54,874 nucleotides of DNA from an uncultured bacterium. Its GTDB lineage: Bacteria > Patescibacteriota > Patescibacteriia > Patescibacteriales > SZUA-104. The notes beneath the pieces were generated by a model. That model ran no database searches, was not told the origin of the DNA, and worked only from the letters and a program-made list of their open reading frames with translations. Positions 5,588-54,828 of the stretch are shown here, in pieces; the first letter of the stretch is position 1, and each line of letters starts with the position of its first letter. The stretch is taken from NCBI GenBank assembly GCA_913009695.1, contig CAJVWV010000001.1, forward strand, positions 1-54,874. The letters run 5' to 3'. Made by a program: the position numbers and the translations under genes.

Positions 5588-6340
5588 ATGAACACAATCT
5601 ACTTTTACACAATTCTAAGTACAGTCATAATTTCCCTATTGTCTTTTGTGGGCGCCTTAGTTTTATCTTTAGACAAAGAAAAGCTGAAAAAAATTACTGC
5701 ATTTCTGGTTGGCTTATCGGCTGGCGCTTTGCTCGGCGAAAGTTTTTTACATCTAATGCCGGAAGCGATTGAGAATAATGGCGCTAATACTTTTATTTGG
5801 CTTTGGCTGCTTGGCGGGATTATAATATTTTTTATTTTAGAGAAAATAATTTTATGGCATCATTGCCATACGCCTGATTGCGAAGCACATAAGCACCCAT
5901 TAGGGAAAATGAACCTATTCGGCGACGGACTTCATAATTTTATAGACGGGCTTATTATTGCCGGCGCGTTTCTAGTTAGCGTACCGCTAGGTATCGCGAC
6001 CACTATTGCAATCATTGCCCATGAAATACCGCAAGAAATGAGCGACTTCGGCATCCTTATTTATTCCGGCTACTCAAGAGCAAAAGCGCTTCTTTTAAAT
6101 TTCCTTTCGGCCGCCGTTTCAATTATCGGCGCTGTTGTCGGACTTTTACTTGGCGCTCAAATGGAAAGTTTTATCACCTACATAATCCCCTTTACGGCAG
6201 GCGGATTTATTTATATAGCGACCGCTGATATTATCCCTGAACTGCACAAAGAAACGAACATCTCAAAATCCCTAAAACAGCTATTAAGCATCTTACTCGG
6301 AATCGGAATAATGTGGGGGTTAAAGGTGTTTTTTGAATAA
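5588..6340 (+). CDS. ZIP-family divalent metal (zinc) transporter
   Basis: 250 aa, multi-TM, HEIPQEMSDFGIL motif, His/Cys-rich loop HHCHTPDCEAHKH. Confidence 0.85.
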   Translation: MNTIYFYTILSTVIISLLSFVGALVLSLDKEKLKKITAFLVGLSAGALLGESFLHLMPEAIENNGANTFIWLWLLGGIIIFFILEKIILWHHCHTPDCEAHKHPLGKMNLFGDGLHNFIDGLIIAGAFLVSVPLGIATTIAIIAHEIPQEMSDFGILIYSGYSRAKALLLNFLSAAVSIIGAVVGLLLGAQMESFITYIIPFTAGGFIYIATADIIPELHKETNISKSLKQLLSILLGIGIMWGLKVFFE

Positions 6341-6345
6341 CAAAA

Positions 6346-6404
6346 AGAGATCCAATCTCCAAATTTGCGAATGCAAATTTGGAGATTGGATCTCTTGCGG
6401 TTTT
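6346..6404 (+). terminator. Strong intrinsic terminator after the ZIP gene
   Basis: Perfect 23-bp stem AGAGATCCAATCTCCAAATTTGC / GCAAATTTGGAGATTGGATCTCT with a 4-nt loop, followed by tgcggTTTT. Confidence 0.8.
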
Positions 6405-6494
6405 ATATCGCTTCACCGTTCAAAGCGAGCAATGTTTGACAAGTGATAAATAGTTGTGTACACTTAAGAAACACATTAATATTAATAAAAATAT

Positions 6495-6743
6495 ATGACC
6501 ACCAAGCTTATAGGCGTTAGAGAATTTCGCCAAAATATGGCAGATCTGTATAAAAAAGCAAGAAAAAATAATTGGCAATTTGTAGTTTTAAATCGTAACC
6601 AACCTATTTTTAAAGTTGAAACTCTTAGTAAAAAGGATGCTGTAATTGAAAAACTCGCCATGGACATTAAGGAGGCCAGAGAAGACGTAAAAAAAGGCAG
6701 AGTTTATGATTTTGAAAAAATTTGCAATGAACTGGGTTTATGA
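6495..6743 (+). CDS. Type II antitoxin (Phd/YefM-like)
   Basis: 82 aa; overlaps the downstream toxin by 4 nt (ATGA); N-terminus LIGVREFRQNMADLYKKA is typical of Phd/YefM-type antitoxins. Confidence 0.7.
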   Translation: MTTKLIGVREFRQNMADLYKKARKNNWQFVVLNRNQPIFKVETLSKKDAVIEKLAMDIKEAREDVKKGRVYDFEKICNELGL

Positions 6744-7009
6744 AATATAAATTGCAATTAACTAAAAAAGCAAAAAATGATTTCCGAGCATTAGAAAGAG
6801 ATACTCAAAAAAAAATTGCTAAAAAATTAAAGTTTTATATTTCAAATAATAGTCCTCTAAAGCACGCTAAAAAGTTAAAAGACAATAGATTCGGGATGTA
6901 TAGATTTAGAATCGGAGATTACCGAGCTATTTTTGATATTGACAATCAGGGTAATATAACTATCCTTATTATTCTACGGATCAAACACAGAAGAAACGTT
7001 TATTTGTAA
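6740..7009 (+). CDS. RelE/ParE-family type II toxin
   Basis: 89 aa; ...NRFGMYRFRIGDYRAIFDIDNQGNITILIILRIKHRRNVY is the canonical RelE/StbE-like C-terminal signature. Confidence 0.85.
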   Translation: MKYKLQLTKKAKNDFRALERDTQKKIAKKLKFYISNNSPLKHAKKLKDNRFGMYRFRIGDYRAIFDIDNQGNITILIILRIKHRRNVYL

Positions 7010-7050
7010 TTTTTTTATTTTATACGGCTTGCCGCTCAAAGTTTTAAAAA

Positions 7051-7123
7051 TGCGGAAGGGAGAGGATTTACCCCTACGCTTCGCTTCGGGGCATAAACTT
7101 CTCATCCTCTCAATTATTTGCGG
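7051..7123 (+). repeat. 68-bp repeat unit carrying the 3' end of tRNA-Ser (distal copy, plus the first 5 nt of a second unit)
   Basis: tgcggaagggagaggatttacccctacgcttcgcttcggggcataaacttctcatcctctcaattatt is identical to the two tandem units at 13051-13186. gcggaagggagaggatt equals the complement of the tRNA-Ser 3' end (13188-13204). Confidence 0.9.
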
Positions 7124-7443
7124 TGCCTTTTGGACGAAATTAGAACTTATTTTGAAGAAAATCCGTCTGCGGATTTTTAAACCGCTAAATATTCGCCTCC
7201 TCCGCCAGCGGGCGGATAAGGCGTAATTATTATTTTAAGGGCAATTTTCAAAAAGGGGGCGGGCAAAAAGGAAACATCAATCTAAAAAAGAAACTCAAAA
7301 TTAAAAAAGTTTTTTACTTAAATTACGCTCCGCTCACCGCCGAAGGCAAAAAAAGGAAGGCTTTTCAAGCCTAAAGAAAATCGGTCAAAAAGGAAGGGGG
7401 GTCAGGGAGAGGAAATTTTTGTCCGATTTTTTTTAGGCTCATA

Positions 7444-7507
7444 CCCCGCTACGCGGGGCTTATTTGGGGCAATATTATTTTTCGTCCCAATAGTATTGGG
7501 ATGCCGT
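7444..7507 (+). repeat. Left copy of an inverted repeat pair (42 nt identical plus a homologous hairpin)
   Basis: ccccgctacgcggggcttatttggggcaatattatttttcgt matches the reverse complement of 12975-13016 exactly. The following hairpin tcccaatagtattggga corresponds to atcccgaagcttcgggat in the other copy. Confidence 0.85.
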
Positions 7508-7572
7508 CTAAAAATTTATATGATGACGGACTGGTTTTAATTTTTTTATATAATAGGTCGGTCTTTTAAGCT

Positions 7573-9450
7573 TTATTTAGATTGTGTAAAACGAAAAAGC
7601 CTTAAACTATTTAAAATTACCAAAATGGCTATGCCTGAATCCGCGCCAATAGCGTATTCAAGATGAGCAAAACCCAAGAGGGCAAAAATAAGAAATATGG
7701 ATTTTACCCCGAGAGAAGCGATAATATTTTGCTTGATTGTTCTTAGGGTTTGTTTGCCGAGATTTACCGCATAAGGAATATTTGAAAGATTGCTGTTCAT
7801 TAACGCTACGTCCGCTGTTTCAATCGCAACGTCAGACCCGCCCACGCCCATGGCGATTCCTACGGTCGCGGTTGCCAAAGAAGGCGCGTCATTCACTCCA
7901 TCTCCAACCATGGCCGTGAAACCAAATTTATTTTTTAATTCTTCAACTCTCTCTACTTTCTCGTCCGGCAAAAGCGAAGCATAAATTTCTTTAATATTAA
8001 GCTTTTTAGCGACAAAATTCGCGGTATGCTTATTATCTCCGGTTACCATAACCGAATGAACACCAATTTTATCAAGACTTTGGATTGTTAATCCGGCGCT
8101 ATCCCGTATCTTATCGGCAATTGCCAATGCTCCCATAATTTTATTGCCGCAACTGACAAGAACCACTGTCTTGCCCTCTTTTTCAAATTTTTCAATTTTA
8201 TCAGAAACTTCTTTTACGGAAACATTATTTGCCCGCATAAGCTTTAGATTACCGATGCAGTGCCGGGAATCATCGCAGACCACGCAGTCAGCCCTGCCGC
8301 CCTTGCCGGCGATATTTTCATATTTTTCCATTAAGTGCGGCGTAATTCCTTTTTTTTCGGCGAATTCTAAAATGCTTTTTGAAAGCGGGTGGGAGGAAAA
8401 CTTTTCAATGCCGGCGGCGTCAGCTAAAATTTCTTCTTCGGAATATCCGTTAAAAGCGATAATATCCGAAATATACGGCTCGCCGAAAGTTAATGTTCTT
8501 GTTTTGTCAAAGGCGATAGCTTTTATTTTTCCTAGCATTTCCAAGTGCTTACCCCCTTTTATAAGCAATCCGCGCTTGGACGCTCCGCCGATTGCCGAAG
8601 CGATAGAAACAGGAGTGGAAATAACTAACGCGCAAGGGCAGGCAATCACCAAAAGCACCAACGCCCGATAAAGCCAATCGCCGAACACGCCGCCGAAAAA
8701 CAATACCGGAATTACGGTAATAGCGGCGGCAACGGCCACAACTCCCGGAGTATAGTATTTCGCGAAACGATCAATAAAATCCTGCGAAGGCGCGCGCGAT
8801 CTTTGCGCTTTTTCAACCAAATCTACAATTTTCGCGAAAGTAGAATCCTTGCTCTCCTTTATAACTTCAATTTCCAGATACCCCTGGCTGTTTAACGTGC
8901 CGGCAAAAACATTGTCGCCTTCGCGCTTATCCCTGGGAATCGGCTCGCCGGTGATAGTCGCTTCGTCAACCGATGAAACCCCCTTTACCACAATTCCATC
9001 AAGAGGAATCATGTCTCCGGGACGGACGGCTACGATATCCTTAACTTTTATTTTCTCAATGGACATTTTTTTTCCGTTCCTAAGAGTCGCTGTTTGCGGA
9101 GATTTTTTAACAAGCTCTTCCAATGCCCGTTTTGACCGTTCAATCCCGAATTTTTCAAAAGCCTCGGCAAGTGAAAAGAAAAACACCACTGTCGCCGCCT
9201 CTGCCAGCTGGCTAATATAGATAGCTCCGATGGCCGCGATGATTACTAAAAAATCTATATTTAAAAACTTCTGTTTTATAATCCCGCGAACAGCCGCGGT
9301 AAAAACAAAATAACCGCCAGAAATTATGGAAACAGCGTAAAGCGGAAAAATAATAAACTCAAATAAATTCAGCCAGCCGAAAACAAGGGCAAAAAGAAGG
9401 CTTATTCCCGATATAACTGTTAAAATTTTCTTTAAATCAAAATTTAACAT
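7573..9450 (-). CDS. P1B-type heavy-metal translocating ATPase (Zn/Cd/Co-like CPC type), no N-terminal metal-binding domain
   Basis: 625 aa; motifs TGEP, CPC (ACPCALVIS), SSHPLS, GDGVNDAP. The phosphorylation motif reads DKTRT rather than DKTGT. The ORF begins directly with TM helices. Confidence 0.9.
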   Translation of the reverse strand: MLNFDLKKILTVISGISLLFALVFGWLNLFEFIIFPLYAVSIISGGYFVFTAAVRGIIKQKFLNIDFLVIIAAIGAIYISQLAEAATVVFFFSLAEAFEKFGIERSKRALEELVKKSPQTATLRNGKKMSIEKIKVKDIVAVRPGDMIPLDGIVVKGVSSVDEATITGEPIPRDKREGDNVFAGTLNSQGYLEIEVIKESKDSTFAKIVDLVEKAQRSRAPSQDFIDRFAKYYTPGVVAVAAAITVIPVLFFGGVFGDWLYRALVLLVIACPCALVISTPVSIASAIGGASKRGLLIKGGKHLEMLGKIKAIAFDKTRTLTFGEPYISDIIAFNGYSEEEILADAAGIEKFSSHPLSKSILEFAEKKGITPHLMEKYENIAGKGGRADCVVCDDSRHCIGNLKLMRANNVSVKEVSDKIEKFEKEGKTVVLVSCGNKIMGALAIADKIRDSAGLTIQSLDKIGVHSVMVTGDNKHTANFVAKKLNIKEIYASLLPDEKVERVEELKNKFGFTAMVGDGVNDAPSLATATVGIAMGVGGSDVAIETADVALMNSNLSNIPYAVNLGKQTLRTIKQNIIASLGVKSIFLIFALLGFAHLEYAIGADSGIAILVILNSLRLFRFTQSK

Positions 9451-9461
9451 TATATATTCTA

Positions 9462-9944
9462 TTATTTATCGCAAGTTTCACAATCATCGCATTTACCGGT
9501 CTTGCATGTGTCTTTTCCCAATCCTTTATCCTTACAGATTATTTTATCCTCCCCACATTCGCATAAATCATCTTGTTGAGGTACAAATATACAACTTTGC
9601 GGTTCTTCAGGATTGCAATTTTTGTACTTAATTAAATTATACACGCTTTTACCGCTAAAGAACAGAGAAACAAAAAATAAAATAACTAAAAACCAGGATA
9701 TTGGCTCCCAAAAACGGTTAATTCCCCTAGCCAATTTCGGCGACCTATTAAGCAGCTGGCCGATAACCTTGCCTTTAATTTTTTTATCAAACCCCGTGTT
9801 GCAGGGGCGCAAAGTAACTCGCCTAAAAACACAATCAAGAGCTTCTTTTGCCAATTGACGGTGAGTGGCGCTAAATATTCCCAAGACTGAAAATATTATT
9901 AAAGCGATTAAACAAAACATAAAATTCCATGAGACTGTCGCCAA
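9462..9944 (-). CDS. Cys-rich small membrane protein (unknown family), probably co-transcribed with the ATPase
   Basis: 160-aa ORF with two hydrophobic segments and 9 Cys in the last 51 aa (CNPEEPQSC...CECGEDKIIC...CKTGKCDDCETCDK). An 11-nt gap separates it from the ATPase start. The start is uncertain (TTG 9944 or ATG 9920). Confidence 0.55.
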   Translation of the reverse strand: MATVSWNFMFCLIALIIFSVLGIFSATHRQLAKEALDCVFRRVTLRPCNTGFDKKIKGKVIGQLLNRSPKLARGINRFWEPISWFLVILFFVSLFFSGKSVYNLIKYKNCNPEEPQSCIFVPQQDDLCECGEDKIICKDKGLGKDTCKTGKCDDCETCDK

Positions 9945-10034
9945 ACCTCGTTGTGGGTGAAATTTTTTGGATTTTCAAACATAAATTGACAAAAATACTA
10001 AAATTTCAGACGTGGCGAAATTTGGCGATAGCCC

Positions 10035-11246
10035 CTACATGATATTAATTATTTTTCTTAAGTTATCAACAAAAATACGCGCTTCATCCTCTGTATTGTA
10101 AAAATACAGAGAAGCGCGTACCGCATTTTTAATTGCATGGCTGGCAAACCACGAATGCACGCAAAACTGCCCCGAGCGAACCATTATATTAGCACTTGAA
10201 TCAAGCATTAAAGCTATTTGATGTGAATCTTTTCCCTCTAAATAAAATGAAATAATACCACCCCTTAAAGCCGGATCAGACGAACCAATAATCTTCAGAT
10301 CAGGAATGTTCATTAATTCTTCCGTAATTATGCGATTTAGTATTGTTTCTTGGTTAGCTATATTTTTTAATCCTATTTTCTTAATATAATTTATAGCCGC
10401 ACCTAAGCCGATAATTCCGGCGTAATCCTGCAACCCGGCTTCAAATTTTTCCGGCGGGGGTAGTAATTTATGTCCTTCATACGTTGAGTATTCAACTGTT
10501 TCACCACCCACCATAAACGGCTCAAGATCTTCTAAAAGATTGTATTTACCGTATAATACTCCGATGCCGGATGGCCCGAGCATTTTATGCCCGGAAAAAG
10601 CTAAAAAATCCACATCCAATTCAGCTACATTAATTTCTTGATGCGGCGCCGCTTGAGCCGCATCCAACAACACCTTGGCCCCATGGCTATGCGCAATTTG
10701 AATTATTTCTTTAACCGGCGCGCTTACTCCGTCTAAATTGGAAGTGTATACCATCGCTACTAGCTTTACATGCTTAGTCATCATTTTTTCAAATCTTTCC
10801 ATATCAAAAGTATTATCTTTTTTTGAATATGCTATTGAAAGGAATATCCCTTTGTTTTTTGCCGCAATTTGCCAAGGGACAAGGTTGGAGTTATGTTCTT
10901 TGTCGGTAATTAAAACCACGTCCCCCGCATCCAATTTTAATGAATTGGCGATCAGATTTATGCTTTCGGTGGTGTTGCGGGTAAAAATGATTTCTTCTTT
11001 TCTTTTGGCGTTAATGAACCTAGCCACCGTCTTCCTCGCTTCCTCGCATTTTTTAGTTACCATATCTCCCAGTGTATGCATACTGCGCCCGGCGCAAGCT
11101 GAATATCTTTCATAATAGTGGTTTACAGCATTGATTACGGGCTGAGGACGCAAAGCCTGGCAGGCGTTATCAAAGTATATAATCGGCTTATCCCCAACCT
11201 TAATTTGCAGCAAGGGAAAATCTTGCCTAATTTTTTCTATATCCAT
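10035..11246 (-). CDS. sufS: Cysteine desulfurase, SufS/NifS-like class V aminotransferase
   Basis: 403 aa; PLP-lysine motif SGHKMLGPSGIGVLYG; C-terminal catalytic Cys loop RSGQFCVHSW. Confidence 0.8.
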   Translation of the reverse strand: MDIEKIRQDFPLLQIKVGDKPIIYFDNACQALRPQPVINAVNHYYERYSACAGRSMHTLGDMVTKKCEEARKTVARFINAKRKEEIIFTRNTTESINLIANSLKLDAGDVVLITDKEHNSNLVPWQIAAKNKGIFLSIAYSKKDNTFDMERFEKMMTKHVKLVAMVYTSNLDGVSAPVKEIIQIAHSHGAKVLLDAAQAAPHQEINVAELDVDFLAFSGHKMLGPSGIGVLYGKYNLLEDLEPFMVGGETVEYSTYEGHKLLPPPEKFEAGLQDYAGIIGLGAAINYIKKIGLKNIANQETILNRIITEELMNIPDLKIIGSSDPALRGGIISFYLEGKDSHQIALMLDSSANIMVRSGQFCVHSWFASHAIKNAVRASLYFYNTEDEARIFVDNLRKIINIM

Positions 11247-11285
11247 ATTTTAATTTTAATAATTTATTTTAATGCGACGCAAGAA

Positions 11286-11327
11286 CGCAATCTCAGTTTA
11301 GGCGTACTAGCGTAAACTGAGATTGCG
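11286..11327 (-). terminator. Long hairpin between the thioredoxin-fold gene and sufS (terminator or attenuator)
   Basis: GCAATCTCAGTTTA...TAAACTGAGATTGC, 14-bp arms. No clean U-run on the minus strand, so its function is uncertain. Confidence 0.35.
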
Positions 11328-11358
11328 AATTTTATATCCCGTGCTAGAAATCAACAAT

Positions 11359-12339
11359 TTAACTGCCGCATCCCCCAGCATTAGAACCGCTGCCGCTAAA
11401 TCCAAATCCCGGCGCTGGCGGAGTGGAAGATAATTTTTTATCGCATTCAGGCGGCGGATTATTAAAGCTTGAACAAATTGTCTTCAACAGACTGCTTGAG
11501 TCACGACCAGATTGAATCTTCGCGCCATTAACCACTAAAGTAGGTGAACCTTTTACGCCATATTTCTGGCCGTCAACTTTATCAACATTAAATTGCGGAT
11601 ACCGGCCACCTGACCAAGTCCCTTTATCAGCGAATAATTCACTAACCTTAAATTCCTTATCAGTAGACGAAATACAGGACTGCAATTGGGATTGATTAAC
11701 TTTTGTTTTAGCCAGGCAAGCGTTGGACTTAGTTTCATCCTCAAGAAAACACTCTAAATAATCATGCAATTTTTCAGGCTCATTTTTTTGAACGCAATAT
11801 TGGATTAACTGTTCGTCAAGCTCTTTCTTCCCATGCATTGCGTAGTCAACAAACTTTAATTTAAAATTAACCTTATCGCCAAGAACGTCTAACACTGGCA
11901 AAATCCCTTTTTCCATCTGCGTGCCATAAGGGCAATAGCTCATAATAAACAGTTCTACTTCCGGCTTATCATTTTTTATCGTCGCCGCGTTTGCCGGCTG
12001 GCTTGTTTGCTTGGCGGAGTTATCGGAATTATCGCTTGCATCGGCTTCAGTCAAATTCATAGCTTGCGGAAATAATTTTTTACCGTCCTTTGTCACAAAA
12101 GAATCTGTTTCCTGACCGTCAGGCAAAACAATAACAATCTTGTACAGCCCGCCCTCTTCCACGGCCTCTTTTACGGTGGCCTCTTTTCCTGCCTGCATTA
12201 AATTATTATTTATAAATTCAATTGCCTTAGTCTTCGCCTCCTCTAGAGAGATATTGTCTGTTTTATTGCCTTGGTTTACGGCGCTACAACCGGCAACCGT
12301 AAATACTAACAGCAGGCTTAATATTAATGTTTTAAACAT
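11359..12339 (-). CDS. Thioredoxin-fold lipoprotein
   Basis: 326 aa; lipobox LLVFTVAGCSA; redox-type motif SYCPYGT; Gly/Ser-rich C-terminus. Confidence 0.7.
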   Translation of the reverse strand: MFKTLILSLLLVFTVAGCSAVNQGNKTDNISLEEAKTKAIEFINNNLMQAGKEATVKEAVEEGGLYKIVIVLPDGQETDSFVTKDGKKLFPQAMNLTEADASDNSDNSAKQTSQPANAATIKNDKPEVELFIMSYCPYGTQMEKGILPVLDVLGDKVNFKLKFVDYAMHGKKELDEQLIQYCVQKNEPEKLHDYLECFLEDETKSNACLAKTKVNQSQLQSCISSTDKEFKVSELFADKGTWSGGRYPQFNVDKVDGQKYGVKGSPTLVVNGAKIQSGRDSSSLLKTICSSFNNPPPECDKKLSSTPPAPGFGFSGSGSNAGGCGS

Positions 12340-12545
12340 ATAATTTTACTCAATTTTATTCGTTATATTCTTAAAAATTTTCCAAAATATTATTTGGATA
12401 AAATTAACAACCAATAACATTGAATTTTTTATTTATTAATTTATTATTTTGTTTATAGTCATAATTTTATCTTTTTATCACAAACAAAAAAAGTGGTAGG
12501 TGACTAACATTATTAAATATAACATCTAATAATACTGCTCTCTCA

Positions 12546-12713
12546 CTATATATGGGAATTTATATCTTCGCTAAAACAAAATGACTTATTACATTCATTA
12601 ATGGAAGTAAAAACACAGCCATCAGGTAGGCAAAAATCCCAAGACGAAGGCAGGGCCACGGCGTAAGCGAATGAAATAAATATTAAAATTGATAAAATTA
12701 TTCTTAATTTCAT
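12546..12713 (-). CDS. Possible small secreted Cys-rich peptide (55 aa, below the ORF-track cutoff)
   Basis: Own translation: MKLRIILSILIFISFAYAVALPSSWDFCLPDGCVFTSINECNKSFCFSEDINSHI*. It has a signal-peptide-like N-terminus and 4 Cys; the SD is weak (AAGAAG). Confidence 0.3.
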   Translation of the reverse strand: MKLRIILSILIFISFAYAVALPSSWDFCLPDGCVFTSINECNKSFCFSEDINSHI

Positions 12714-12944
12714 ATCTTCTTTATATTTATAGTCCTATTCTAACATACAATAAATAATAAGTGTAGCTGAATCTTGCCTCACGCAGAATGAGCCCGAAAT
12801 GGATATAAATTTAGCATTTCTGCCAATTAAAACTAAAATTTATATTCTAAATGTAATATGATAGATCAGAATATATAATACACACAATAAATAAGGGAGT
12901 TCATTTGTCTCGCGCGCGAATGGGCGGGAGGGTCAAGCGCGAGT

Positions 12945-12978
12945 AAAAAAACGGCGTATCCCGAAGCTTCGGGATACG
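12945..12978 (-). terminator. Intrinsic terminator downstream of tRNA-Ser and its repeat array
   Basis: Minus strand: CGTATCCCGAAGCTTCGGGATACG (perfect 10-12 bp stem) followed by ccgTTTTTTT. Confidence 0.7.
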
Positions 12979-13016
12979 AAAAATAATATTGCCCCAAATA
13001 AGCCCCGCGTAGCGGG
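12954..13016 (-). repeat. Right copy of the inverted repeat pair (see 7444-7507)
   Basis: The reverse complement reads ttgCCCCGCTACGCGGGGCTTATTTGGGGCAATATTATTTTTCGTatcccgaagcttcgggatacgccgt. Confidence 0.85.
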
Positions 13017-13050
13017 GCAATAATCTTTAAAAAATCTAAAATTGTAAAAA

Positions 13051-13186
13051 TGCGGAAGGGAGAGGATTTACCCCTACGCTTCGCTTCGGGGCATAAACTT
13101 CTCATCCTCTCAATTATTTGCGGAAGGGAGAGGATTTACCCCTACGCTTCGCTTCGGGGCATAAACTTCTCATCCTCTCAATTATT
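13051..13186 (+). repeat. Two perfect tandem 68-bp units abutting the 3' end of tRNA-Ser
   Basis: Units 13051-13118 and 13119-13186 are identical. Each ends (minus-strand sense) with the last 17 nt of tRNA-Ser and contains the internal hairpin GAGAGGAT...ATCCTCTC. Confidence 0.9.
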
Positions 13187-13188
13187 TG

Positions 13189-13275
13189 CGGAAGGGAGAG
13201 GATTCGAACCTCCGAGACCTTTTACAGCCTACCGCCTTTCCAAGGCGGCGCACTCGACCACTATGCGACCCTTCC
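13189..13275 (-). tRNA. tRNA-Ser (anticodon GGA), long variable arm, CCA not encoded
   Basis: Minus read GGAAGGGTCGCATAGTGGTCGAGTGCGCCGCCTTGGAAAGGCGGTAGGCTGTAAAAGGTCTCGGAGGTTCGAATCCTCTCCCTTCCG. It has a CCGCC/GGCGG anticodon stem with a TT-GGA-AA loop and type II tRNA architecture. Confidence 0.9.
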
Positions 13276-54719: not shown

Positions 54720-54744
54720 AGTTGTTTATCTAATTTAACGCGTG

Positions 54745-54828
54745 AGATCGGAAGAGCACACGTCTGAACTCCAGTCACACTGATATATCTCGTATGCCGT
54801 CTTCTGCTTGAAAAAAAAAAAAAAAAAA
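54745..54828. other. Illumina TruSeq adapter read-through plus poly-A (non-biological sequence)
   Basis: AGATCGGAAGAGCACACGTCTGAACTCCAGTCAC-ACTGATAT-ATCTCGTATGCCGTCTTCTGCTTG (54745-54810) followed by A18. Confidence 0.95.

Follow-up and report, generated by a model that had tools for sequence, protein, structure and literature searches.

How did an operon of metal- and sulfur-handling genes that carries no recombinase come to lie precisely between two copies of the 3' end of a serine tRNA gene? The question is raised by a locus of an uncultured bacterium (Patescibacteriota, SZUA-104; assembly GCA_913009695.1), on contig CAJVWV010000001.1, whose 54,874 nucleotides were analysed as a whole (hereafter the window). 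The window is the whole of contig C1 in a 939-kb assembly of 43 contigs that is ~80% complete (G000). The operon encodes a P1B ATPase, a Cys-rich membrane protein, a SufS-type cysteine desulfurase and a lipoprotein. With a probability of roughly 0.6, we consider it to be a non-autonomous island at tRNA-Ser, which would have been mobilised in trans by a serine recombinase.

The tRNA-Ser(GGA) gene is located on the minus strand (13188/9-13275; ARAGORN; Rfam tRNA, 55 bits) and does not encode the CCA. Its last 17 nt (positions 58-74, AATCCTCTCCCTTCCGC) are copied, in tRNA sense, at the end of each of three identical 68-bp units on the same strand, namely the tRNA-proximal unit 1 (13120-13187), unit 2 in tandem with it (13052-13119) and the distal unit 3 (7052-7119, 100% identical to the other two). 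Each unit consists of a 51-nt part, here called E (AAATAATT and GAGAGGAT followed by the conserved core GAGAAGTTTATGCCCCGAAGCGAAGCGTAGGGGTA; in full, AAATAATT-GAGAGGAT-GAGAAGTTTATG-CCCC-GAAGCGAAGCGTA-GGGG-TA), and of the 17-nt copy of the tRNA end. A first-pass annotation of this DNA had already described the tRNA with two perfect tandem units and an identical third unit ~6 kb away. All of them are present (13052-13275 and 7052-7119), and the direct repeat is longer than had been noted, with 86 nt at 98% identity, 79 nt of them exact (7038-7123 versus 13038-13123). The start-to-start spacing of this repeat is exactly 6000 bp (5932 + 68). No further copy of either the unit or the inverted repeat described below was found in the 939-kb assembly.

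Followed in the direction of the tRNA, the locus consists of tRNA, unit, unit, ATTTTTACAATTTTAG... cargo ...GTTCTAATTTCGTCCAAAAGGCACCGC, unit, and then ATTTTTAAAACTTT... and ParE. Thus, the cargo is placed exactly at a boundary between two units, right behind a copy of the tRNA end. The cargo element (7120-13051, minus strand, 5932 bp) starts directly after the tRNA-end copy of unit 2 (...CCGC/A) and is followed by unit 3; its outermost sequences are ATTTTTACAATTT... and ...GTCCAAAAGGCACCGC. The tRNA-proximal end (13036-13051, minus strand, ATTTTTACAATTTTAG in tRNA sense) is referred to as the P' half-site. The distal end (7120-7146, minus strand, GTTCTAATTTCGTCCAAAAGGCACCGC in tRNA sense), which resembles a degenerate tRNA 3' end, is referred to as the P-end. 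A site without cargo would join the copy in unit 2 to AAATAATTGAG of unit 3. The flank past unit 3 (7038-7051, minus strand, ATTTTTAAAACTTT in tRNA sense) matches the start of P' at 12 of 14 positions.

A candidate enzyme is encoded on another contig of the same genome, C6. We use large serine recombinase (LSR) for proteins with Resolvase, Recombinase and Zn_ribbon_recom domains. Searches with LSR queries from G085, a genome of the same order, identified a gene on C6 (2412 to about 3800; 30% identity over 469 aa) whose product contains all three domains. It matches the XisF/CcrB family models plus the serine-integrase structures of A118 and SPbeta (4KIS and 9DXH chains), its scores against the CcrB/CcrC/CcrA family models being under the cut-offs. 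It is the sole intact LSR gene in G000. It points towards tRNA-Ser(CGA), converging on the 3' end of the tRNA gene, and is inserted straight after it, with the same ATTTTTACAATTT arm as the cargo; the sequence directly after the tRNA, ATTTTTACAATTTCAG, matches 15 of the first 16 nt of the cargo. The junction of tRNA, arm and LSR 3' end was confirmed in the assembly of a second sample. Apart from this gene, the recombinases found in G000 comprise two Xer-like tyrosine recombinases (PF00589; C20 and C35), one of which scores on the XerA/integron-integrase model and sits on a different contig from the cargo, and a truncated LSR on C5 that lacks the catalytic domain and lies beside tRNA-Trp. No LSR was found at tRNA-Ser(CGA) of the same-family relative G002, and look-ups of the exact C6 recombinase protein, as well as of the ZIP protein encoded near the cargo, returned no other records.

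Both ends of the cargo recur at this locus. The 17-mer CCGCATTTTTACAATTT, which comprises the start of P' and the preceding CCGC, has exactly three copies in the genome: one at window 13039-13055, one at C6:3946-3962, where the end of tRNA-Ser(CGA) meets the arm, and one at C6:2144-2160. The 27-nt distal cargo end recurs (25/27) only at C6:2121-2147, fused directly to the 17-mer starting ATTTTTACAATTT. By our own estimate, ~1e-4 extra exact copies of the 17-mer would be expected in G000 by chance, and far fewer of the 27-mer. As the 17-mer and the 27-mer are contiguous on C6, the two ends of the cargo are halves of one junction of ~45 bp (C6:2121-2160 region), which lies 260 bp upstream of the LSR start codon. 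Judged by its sequence, this junction is attP-like, having the size and position that would be expected of a serine-integrase attP. The motif CCGCA, at or near which strand exchange would take place, is common to all four junction types (the putative attP, attB, attL and attR). Compared with a complete LSR element, the ends are the halves of an attP-sized site next to an LSR gene, and the LSR itself is encoded in trans on C6 rather than inside the element.

Related sequences were also observed away from these two loci. In a mini-element of ~145 bp (G000:C11:30717-30892; L105:2715-2908), two direct copies of a P-end-like motif, TTGGCGGTACNTTTTGGTTGAAATTCTAAC, enclose a P'-like arm together with a P-arm; it represents another gene-less type derived from the same family of elements. 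Exact matches to the P-end motif of 23 nt (2 positions free) were found in contigs of Moranbacteria-type and Saccharibacteria metagenome-assembled genomes (L128, L130 and L131). In L128 and L131, ~120 conserved nt stand ahead of the motif, and in L130 it begins at the contig end; Rfam gave no match for this arm. The motif lies beside ordinary metabolic genes in L128 and L130, and is followed by the unit core in L130 and by a P'-like AATTTTTCAAAATT in L128.

We then compared the locus with those of G001 and G002, two relatives of the same family (other G numbers denote genomes of the same order). At the corresponding site, G001 (C6 of that genome) contains genes for ZIP, a DedA-like protein, tRNA-Ser, DsbA and GatA, with neither module nor unit. 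G002 (its C23) contains the DedA-like gene, a single unit and tRNA-Ser, again without the module. In G001, tRNA-Ser(GGA) ends in ...CCGCCA and is followed by a terminator; in G002, a 64-nt block of E plus tRNA-end copy stands between the tRNA and the homologous terminator, which makes the polarity of the insertion apparent. The empty tRNA-Ser site that the first-pass annotation had suggested looking for in relatives thus exists, and an arrangement of the same genes in the same place without repeats, which would have spoken against an island, was not seen. The flank is not identical between G000 and its relatives, with the DedA-like gene in G001 versus a toxin-antitoxin pair in G000.

Independent assemblies, recovered by exact-protein look-ups, contain the same integrated layout; the locus is present in the ENA assemblies ERZ909563, ERZ909565, ERZ1742236 and ERZ1742237. 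L136 is a k127 contig assembled from sample ERZ909563; it follows the window collinearly over 5819-13177 (from ZIP to unit 1), bridges both junctions and extends 58 nt into the second proximal unit. L132, a SPAdes contig from a second sample (ENA ERZ1742237 NODE_1045), has the order LigA, GatC, GatA, DsbA, tRNA, one unit, cargo and unit 3, and then a different flank. Unit 2 is missing from L132, and unit 3 is present in L132, L135 and L136. Directly after unit 3, L132 has a bidirectional terminator and a gene with a Bro-N domain (L132:17024-17841) in place of the ParE, Phd and ZIP genes of the window; this Bro-N flank is absent from G000, and the last tRNA-end copy in L132 reads ...TTCTGC. Since L132 and L136 bridge the junctions, the integrated layout is no artefact of one assembly. 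Both the unit number (one versus two) and the sequence after unit 3 vary between assemblies, which implies that the boundary is a variable insertion point; strain variation of this kind would be anticipated where insertion is, or was until recently, active. A further contig, L137, which joins position 7130 to the window end, was set aside as chimeric-looking, being an adapter-flanked contig of read size. A recent sweep of the cargo was also considered (2 mismatches in 6.1 kb relative to L132, versus 29 in 11 kb of flank) and dropped, as the flank differences are clustered and the 2.4 kb adjoining the tRNA are free of mismatches to L132 too. At the contig end, window 54741-54820 contains an Illumina TruSeq adapter (AGATCGGAAGAGCACACGTCTGAACTCCAGTCAC, index ACTGATAT, ATCTCGTATGCCGTCTTCTGCTTG, plus poly-A), indicating that the last ~130 bases of the window are contaminated.

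The 68-bp units are members of a family that extends through the order. A DNA search of 40 relatives identified unit-like matches in several other families, all behind tRNA genes and with a common architecture: the tRNA, a spacer often containing a terminator hairpin, the conserved core GAGAAGTTTATGCCCCGNAGCG..GCGNAGGGGTA, and the 3'-terminal 17 nt of that very tRNA in exact copy. The family core is GAGAAGTTTATGCCCC...GGGGTA, followed by the copy of positions 58-74 of the adjacent tRNA, and the units of the window conform to it. Using a covariance model built from ten units, which matches the units of the window with 85 bits, we surveyed 301 genomes of the order (one genome per species) and detected the family in 34 of them, G000 included, representing 22 of 96 genera, with 1-10 copies per genome. 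The tRNAs carrying units are those for Ser (four anticodons), Gln, Leu, Lys, Asn, Val, Ala, Thr and Tyr. Among the 52 units listed, 33 agree over 15 nt or more with the closest tRNA upstream on the same strand, nine have no such tRNA within the extracted locus, and six more are >370 nt from the nearest one. Tandem arrays of five or more units exist elsewhere (G089), and in several genomes the encoded CCA is kept in the distal copy and lost from the tRNA-proximal one. This bears on the concern that the repeat might be a common dispersed one unconnected to the module: the family is indeed widespread, but all three copies in G000 are at this locus and carry the end of this tRNA.

The units also share a structure with two helices, P1 and P2. 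In 47 distinct sequences, 93% of the cells in these helices are paired, and compensatory changes occur in 9 of the 14 pairs, the pairing being somewhat inflated as the alignment was fitted to the covariance model. None of 500 shuffles reached the observed helix score, and slid controls fell to 28-51% paired. The outer helix P1 joins the 5' arm of the unit to the complementary T-stem part of the copy and varies with the tRNA concerned; four of its six pairs have changes on both sides, and 88% of its cells are paired. Folding of the unit gave a z-score of -2.9. At one position of P2, G-U is the most frequent pair, and the structure therefore suits the tRNA-sense strand. Such a conserved, covarying hairpin suggests that the unit has a role of its own as a DNA or RNA structure. 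The patchy distribution of the units is in keeping with a mobile or insertion-derived element and not with a housekeeping RNA.

Searches for a known counterpart of the units were negative. For the units, the inverted repeat and the P-arm alike, Rfam gave no family that was credible. Its sX4 match (39 bits, cut-off 70), which spans the tRNA plus the first unit, looks tRNA-driven and was discarded, and a match to RT-2 was at chance level (16 bits, E 1.9). A self-cleaving ribozyme was rejected as well, as comparison of the unit with the hammerhead core by eye gave no match and no ribozyme family of Rfam appeared at E <=5. The unit core had no matches in IMG/VR viral contigs, which means that there is no evidence for the units as phage attP sites in known viral contigs. 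Exact patterns for the unit and for the P-end/P' junction had no matches in JGI metagenome contigs. Full-text literature searches returned neither a description of serine-recombinase elements at tRNA ends in Patescibacteria nor a published name for the unit family. The family is widespread and apparently undescribed.

Elements that combine an LSR with such units occur in other genomes. In three of them (G085, G093 and G152), LSR-bearing elements of 12-14 kb span the distance from a tRNA 3' end to a family unit. Contig C7 of G085 contains, in order, tRNA-Ser(TGA), a unit, an LSR, 12 kb of cargo, a unit and a second LSR; the units are 13.2 kb apart, both LSR genes are on the strand opposite to the preceding unit, and the cargo includes GIY-YIG, DndB-like, trypsin-like and phage Rep O genes. 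In G093 (C8), tRNA-Gln is followed 150 nt downstream by a frameshifted LSR, then by 12 kb and two units with the tRNA-Gln end copy. The order in G152 (C3) is tRNA-Asn, LSR, 13 kb and unit; there, the tRNA-Asn end copy of the distal unit is broken by a 20-nt GC-rich palindrome, CTGCCTTGCCGGCAGGCAGG (L126:1630-1700). An LSR gene of G215 (C2) runs straight into a unit. Unrelated cargo in this layout between units was also found: in G223 (C2), tRNA-Gln and a unit are followed by a single-gene cargo of 2.2-2.3 kb that ends in ...CCCATCCTCTCAGC, a degenerate tRNA-Gln end, and then by a unit whose copy differs at two positions. A further case is a 134-nt repeat in G035 (C14), whose copies are 2958 bp apart. 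Near this unit-bracketed 3-kb segment, we observed an ORF with an FLTLTF motif typical of rolling-circle initiators (L057:3-452).

How might the island have been formed? In the explanation that we favour, insertion would have occurred directly after a copy of the tRNA-Ser(GGA) end, at the ...TTCCGC/A boundary between units 2 and 3, and integration, and possibly excision, would be carried out in trans by the C6 LSR or a close relative. Such an enzyme would recognise the tRNA-Ser 3' end or its copy, with strand exchange at or near CCGC/A, immediately beyond the discriminator base. Every unit, like every other copy of the tRNA 3' end, could then be used as a fresh target, and cargo without an enzyme of its own could have moved, or have been assembled, using tRNA-end sites. 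The arm next to the tRNA would supply a terminator (12950-12978) that replaces the native tRNA terminator displaced by the insertion. The 68-bp units themselves belong to a separate but linked family, which would regenerate the target and which marks the far boundary of the 12-14 kb LSR elements elsewhere. One scheme that fits their origin is that a full element carries, distally, a degenerate tRNA end, then E and a tRNA-end copy; excision via the inner degenerate site would leave one unit of E plus copy and yield a P-end/P' junction like that on C6. A bolder proposal, which we regard as doubtful, is that the unit is a new structure-specific recombination module, in which the hairpin, through an element-encoded 5' arm fitted to the copied T-stem part, would allow the LSR family or another enzyme to land at almost any tRNA 3' end, the site being rebuilt with each insertion so that cassette-like arrays could accept recombinase-less cargo.

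Several other explanations have to be considered. The first-pass annotation had taken the duplicated tRNA end as the attL/attR scar of site-specific integration. What stands of this proposal is the non-autonomous, island-like insertion at the tRNA-Ser 3' end; the repeats, by comparison, are family units, and the cargo lies between two of them. In its classical form, an element with a tyrosine integrase would have entered at the T-loop/3' end and provided the tRNA gene with a new 3' end before its integrase was lost, and the 68/86-bp repeats would be attL and attR. Direct repeats do flank the cargo, the duplicated block runs from tRNA position 58 to the 3' end as is generally known for integrases of the T-loop class, and distal copies elsewhere keep both the native CCA and the native downstream terminator. 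Such a history is nevertheless distinctly unlikely, given that G000 holds no tyrosine integrase besides the two Xer-like proteins, with none in the island, and that every autonomous counterpart examined carries an LSR instead. In addition, the repeats are complete units and not a core, and the conserved P-end before unit 3, which is joined to the P' arm on C6, would not be predicted. Somewhat less improbable, though still unlikely, is that no dedicated recombinase was involved and that the operon was captured or relocated when units of 68-86 bp that were already in place underwent homologous recombination or unequal crossing-over, for example through integration of a circle that unit-unit recombination had produced, the likeness to C6 being shared repeat debris. 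The 79 nt of perfect identity flanking the cargo would suit this mechanism, as would the differing unit number between assemblies, the tandem arrays in G089 and the many unit-bearing genomes without an LSR. It fails, however, to explain why the outermost 16 and 27 nt of the cargo, which lie outside the units, recur as a contiguous junction beside an LSR and after another tRNA-Ser, and why unrelated cargos elsewhere end in degenerate tRNA ends followed by a unit.

The remaining two alternatives concern the nature of the units and the reliability of the contig. The units could be primarily functional RNAs, that is, tRNA-linked structured transcripts that mimic the T-arm plus the acceptor 3' strand (in processing, as decoys or in regulation), with the module merely lying between copies. 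The covariation of P1 and P2 on the tRNA-sense strand, with G-U tolerated on that strand only, agrees with such a role, and so do the fold z-score and the position of the window units between tRNA and terminator. We give it slim odds in view of the patchy distribution (34/301 genomes, 22/96 genera, and presence or absence among close relatives), the decay of distal copies (G223, G002 and L132), longer versions that put a terminator between tRNA and core, and the missing Rfam match; it would, moreover, be compatible with mobilisation by a serine recombinase. An assembly artefact, in which a free circle of 6.0 kb or a segment from elsewhere was threaded in via the shared 79-nt repeat, might be suspected from the period of exactly 6000 bp, from a repeat that is shorter than typical final k-mers merely by a margin, and from the adapter at the contig end, which shows that the assembly is not clean. 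It is nevertheless highly improbable, as L136 and L132, from different samples, bridge both junctions.

Some observations weigh against a non-autonomous island moved by the C6 LSR. No recombinase or transposase gene is present among the ORFs of the module (7052-13187); here the first-pass annotation, which had reported neither an integrase nor a transposase, was right for the module itself, and what it lacked was the candidate LSR in trans, which is of serine and not tyrosine type. The C6 locus is odd, in that the LSR lies between inverted arms, has no stop and has an unassembled far end. The arms are 157 nt long and 97% identical, one abutting tRNA-Ser(CGA) and the other the P-end motif (C6:2113-3964), and the ORF meets no stop before running through the tRNA on the opposite strand; the locus may be an invertible or rearranged cassette. 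The P' arm of the cargo and the C6 arm are unalignable past the first 16 nt and a similar terminator stem, and dyad symmetry in the att halves is slight. No LSR domain match was obtained for 12 of the 34 unit-bearing genomes, which implies that units persist independent of a resident enzyme. Moreover, the identities of ATPase and SufS to the sister genus (70-72%) are at the level of housekeeping proteins (74-76% for GatA, with GatC and TopA alike), which makes the ATPase-SufS core of the cargo a relocated set of the family's own genes, not a foreign one. The composition of the cargo is just mildly atypical: the module had been described as less AT-rich than its surroundings, and its GC content is indeed 39.1% versus 34.8% for the genome (96th percentile of equal-sized windows), but the k-mer comparison that had been proposed along with it gave a tetranucleotide distance only at the 80th percentile, which is unremarkable.

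The genes of the cargo, all on the minus strand, look like an accessory set for metal and thiol homeostasis that duplicates resident genes. The P1B heavy-metal ATPase (7573-9450) is Zn/Cd/Pb-like with a CPC motif, and its orthologues (71-72%) were found only in the two same-family genomes. Its phosphorylation motif is DKTRT versus the invariant DKTGT, which the orthologue in G002 retains. DKTRT is present in all assemblies of the locus, and it is no read error, since the ATPase region has no mismatch to the independent SPAdes contig L132; as a result of this substitution, the pump is possibly impaired. The ATPase gene of G001 and G002 is on other contigs, convergent with ComF, and in G002 it is followed by SufS. 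The neighbours of ComF in G000 are a 281-aa gene, a GIY-YIG gene and tRNA-Ser(TGA); an attempt to place the ATPase-SufS contig of G002 beside tRNA-Ser(TGA) failed, as contigs end before meeting. The Cys-rich membrane protein (9462-9944; 160 aa, 152 aa in other assemblies) has no family match. Its paralogue on C8 (74% over 112 aa) is encoded just upstream of the resident P1B ATPase, so that the two genes appear to be a conserved pair. This resident cluster (G000:C8:19055-24001) contains a DsbA-like gene, the Cys-rich membrane protein and the P1B ATPase, which is 36% identical to that of the cargo. The SufS-type cysteine desulfurase (10035-11246; Pfam Aminotran_5, 7e-120; TIGR01979, 2e-137) has a 70% orthologue in G002 (C39). 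The lipoprotein (11359-12339), with weak thioredoxin-fold matches, looks like an exported thiol-redox protein and is an extra copy whose paralogue on C4 of G000 is 54% identical; the proteins most similar to it (56-59%) belong to other families of the order, and no match was found in G001 or G002. The gene content given in the first-pass annotation could be retained for these four proteins, the thioredoxin fold resting on weak matches, and its possible small Cys-rich peptide could not: the 55-aa ORF has no gene call in three other assemblies. A solo terminal repeat (..ATGAGCCCGAAATGG..) of an rve/DDE insertion sequence, 63 nt long (12778-12840, plus strand), is a remnant with no transposase here and sits within the promoter region of the operon; an intact insertion sequence with this end, encoding a 414-aa transposase, is present in G002 (C150; L111).

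The inverted pair that had been noted inside the direct repeats is real, with arms of 61 nt (7425-7485 and 12976-13036) that are 89% complementary. The arms have 42 nt in common without any difference and, next to these, a hairpin in which the changes from one arm to the other are compensatory. The right arm (12950-13036, minus strand) is within the P' arm and forms two hairpins, the second of which (GTATCCCGAAGCTTCGGGATAC, then GCCG and T7) is built like an intrinsic terminator, which would act on transcripts from the tRNA and the units. The left arm (7425-7507, plus strand) is a partial inverted copy of the P' arm. The pair was therefore rejected as transposon termini, the right arm being part of the tRNA-proximal arm with the tRNA terminator and the left arm its partial inverted copy. 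It is internal to the cargo, set back by 15 nt from the right end and by 305 nt from the left, with no duplication around it. A composite or terminal-inverted-repeat transposon was likewise rejected, as there are no terminal inverted repeats, no target-site duplication and no transposase. Fragments related to the right arm were found at C5:3072-3105 and C11:30818-30859. A GC-rich hairpin, CTCGCGC...GCGCGAG with loop TTGACCCTCCCGCCCATTC (window 12900-12950), plus the terminator hairpin at 12952-12985, recurs at C5:3000-3105, 1.3 kb from the truncated recombinase. Adjoining the left arm, TCCTCTCCCT (window 7398-7416) has a 10-nt match to the 3' end of tRNA-Ser(GGA) in tRNA sense, and may be a further decayed tRNA-end copy in the 305-nt non-coding tail of the cargo. 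Outside the left unit and antisense to the tRNA, a Phd-like antitoxin and a ParE/RelE-type toxin are encoded (6495-7009, plus strand), in agreement with the RelE/antitoxin pair reported there before; they are possibly a remnant of an older element.

Among known systems, the closest functional analogue is the staphylococcal cassette chromosome (SCC). In staphylococci, the LSRs CcrA, CcrB and CcrC insert cassettes at the 3' end of rlmH; the target is regenerated, tandem and composite arrays arise, and cassettes without ccr are mobilised in trans. SCC elements, including SCCmec and ccr-less pseudo-SCC, resemble the elements described here in being cargo cassettes of a serine recombinase at the 3' end of a conserved gene, with arrays and recombinase-less members. 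They differ in that the targets here are tRNA 3' ends, of at least eight isoacceptor types across the order, and not rlmH, that a structured unit of 50-100 nt with an exact tRNA-end copy is involved, and that the host has a tiny genome of the Patescibacteria type; mobilisation in trans is, in our case, inferred from sequence. Tyrosine-integrase tRNA islands (Williams 2002 classes; Islander-type) and the tycheposons of Prochlorococcus also occupy tRNA 3' ends, with repeats from the T-loop onward, tandem arrays and integrase-less members. The location, the flanking repeats with the tRNA end and the accessory cargo are shared with them, whereas the elements here are LSR-associated, their repeats are whole structured units, and their distal end is a degenerate mimic of the tRNA end. 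Serine-integrase prophages (A118, SPbeta with SprA, Bxb1 and phiC31) have the same recombinase domain architecture and a junction of ~45 bp beside the gene. Such prophages integrate at a single fixed attB, in most cases within a protein gene, and make no copy of the target; in contrast, the elements here contain or adjoin copies of the tRNA end that is their target, and some, with a length of 6 kb, have no phage genes. The likeness to integron cassettes (attC) is one of form only, with arrays of short modules whose recombination-site-like ends regenerate a junction, and with a covarying hairpin stem. There is no IntI, attI or GTTRRRY core here and most units contain no ORF; an integron cassette array was rejected, as the units contain no RYYYAAC/GTTRRRY cores.

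Patescibacteria (the candidate phyla radiation) have minimal genomes, and little is known of their gene exchange. The locus would offer a concrete route for it, in which tRNA 3' ends multiplied by structured insertions are docking points for LSR elements and for recombinase-less cargo that shares their ends. Units of 50-100 nt account for many apparent att scars and pseudo-tRNA fragments in the annotation of these genomes. Mini-insertions at tRNA ends would now be linked to a recombinase family, with a candidate pair of enzyme and substrate (the P-end/P' junction and tRNA-Ser ends). LSRs are sought as genome-engineering tools, and a family that targets many tRNA ends with a covarying hairpin would, if true, be of both practical and evolutionary interest.

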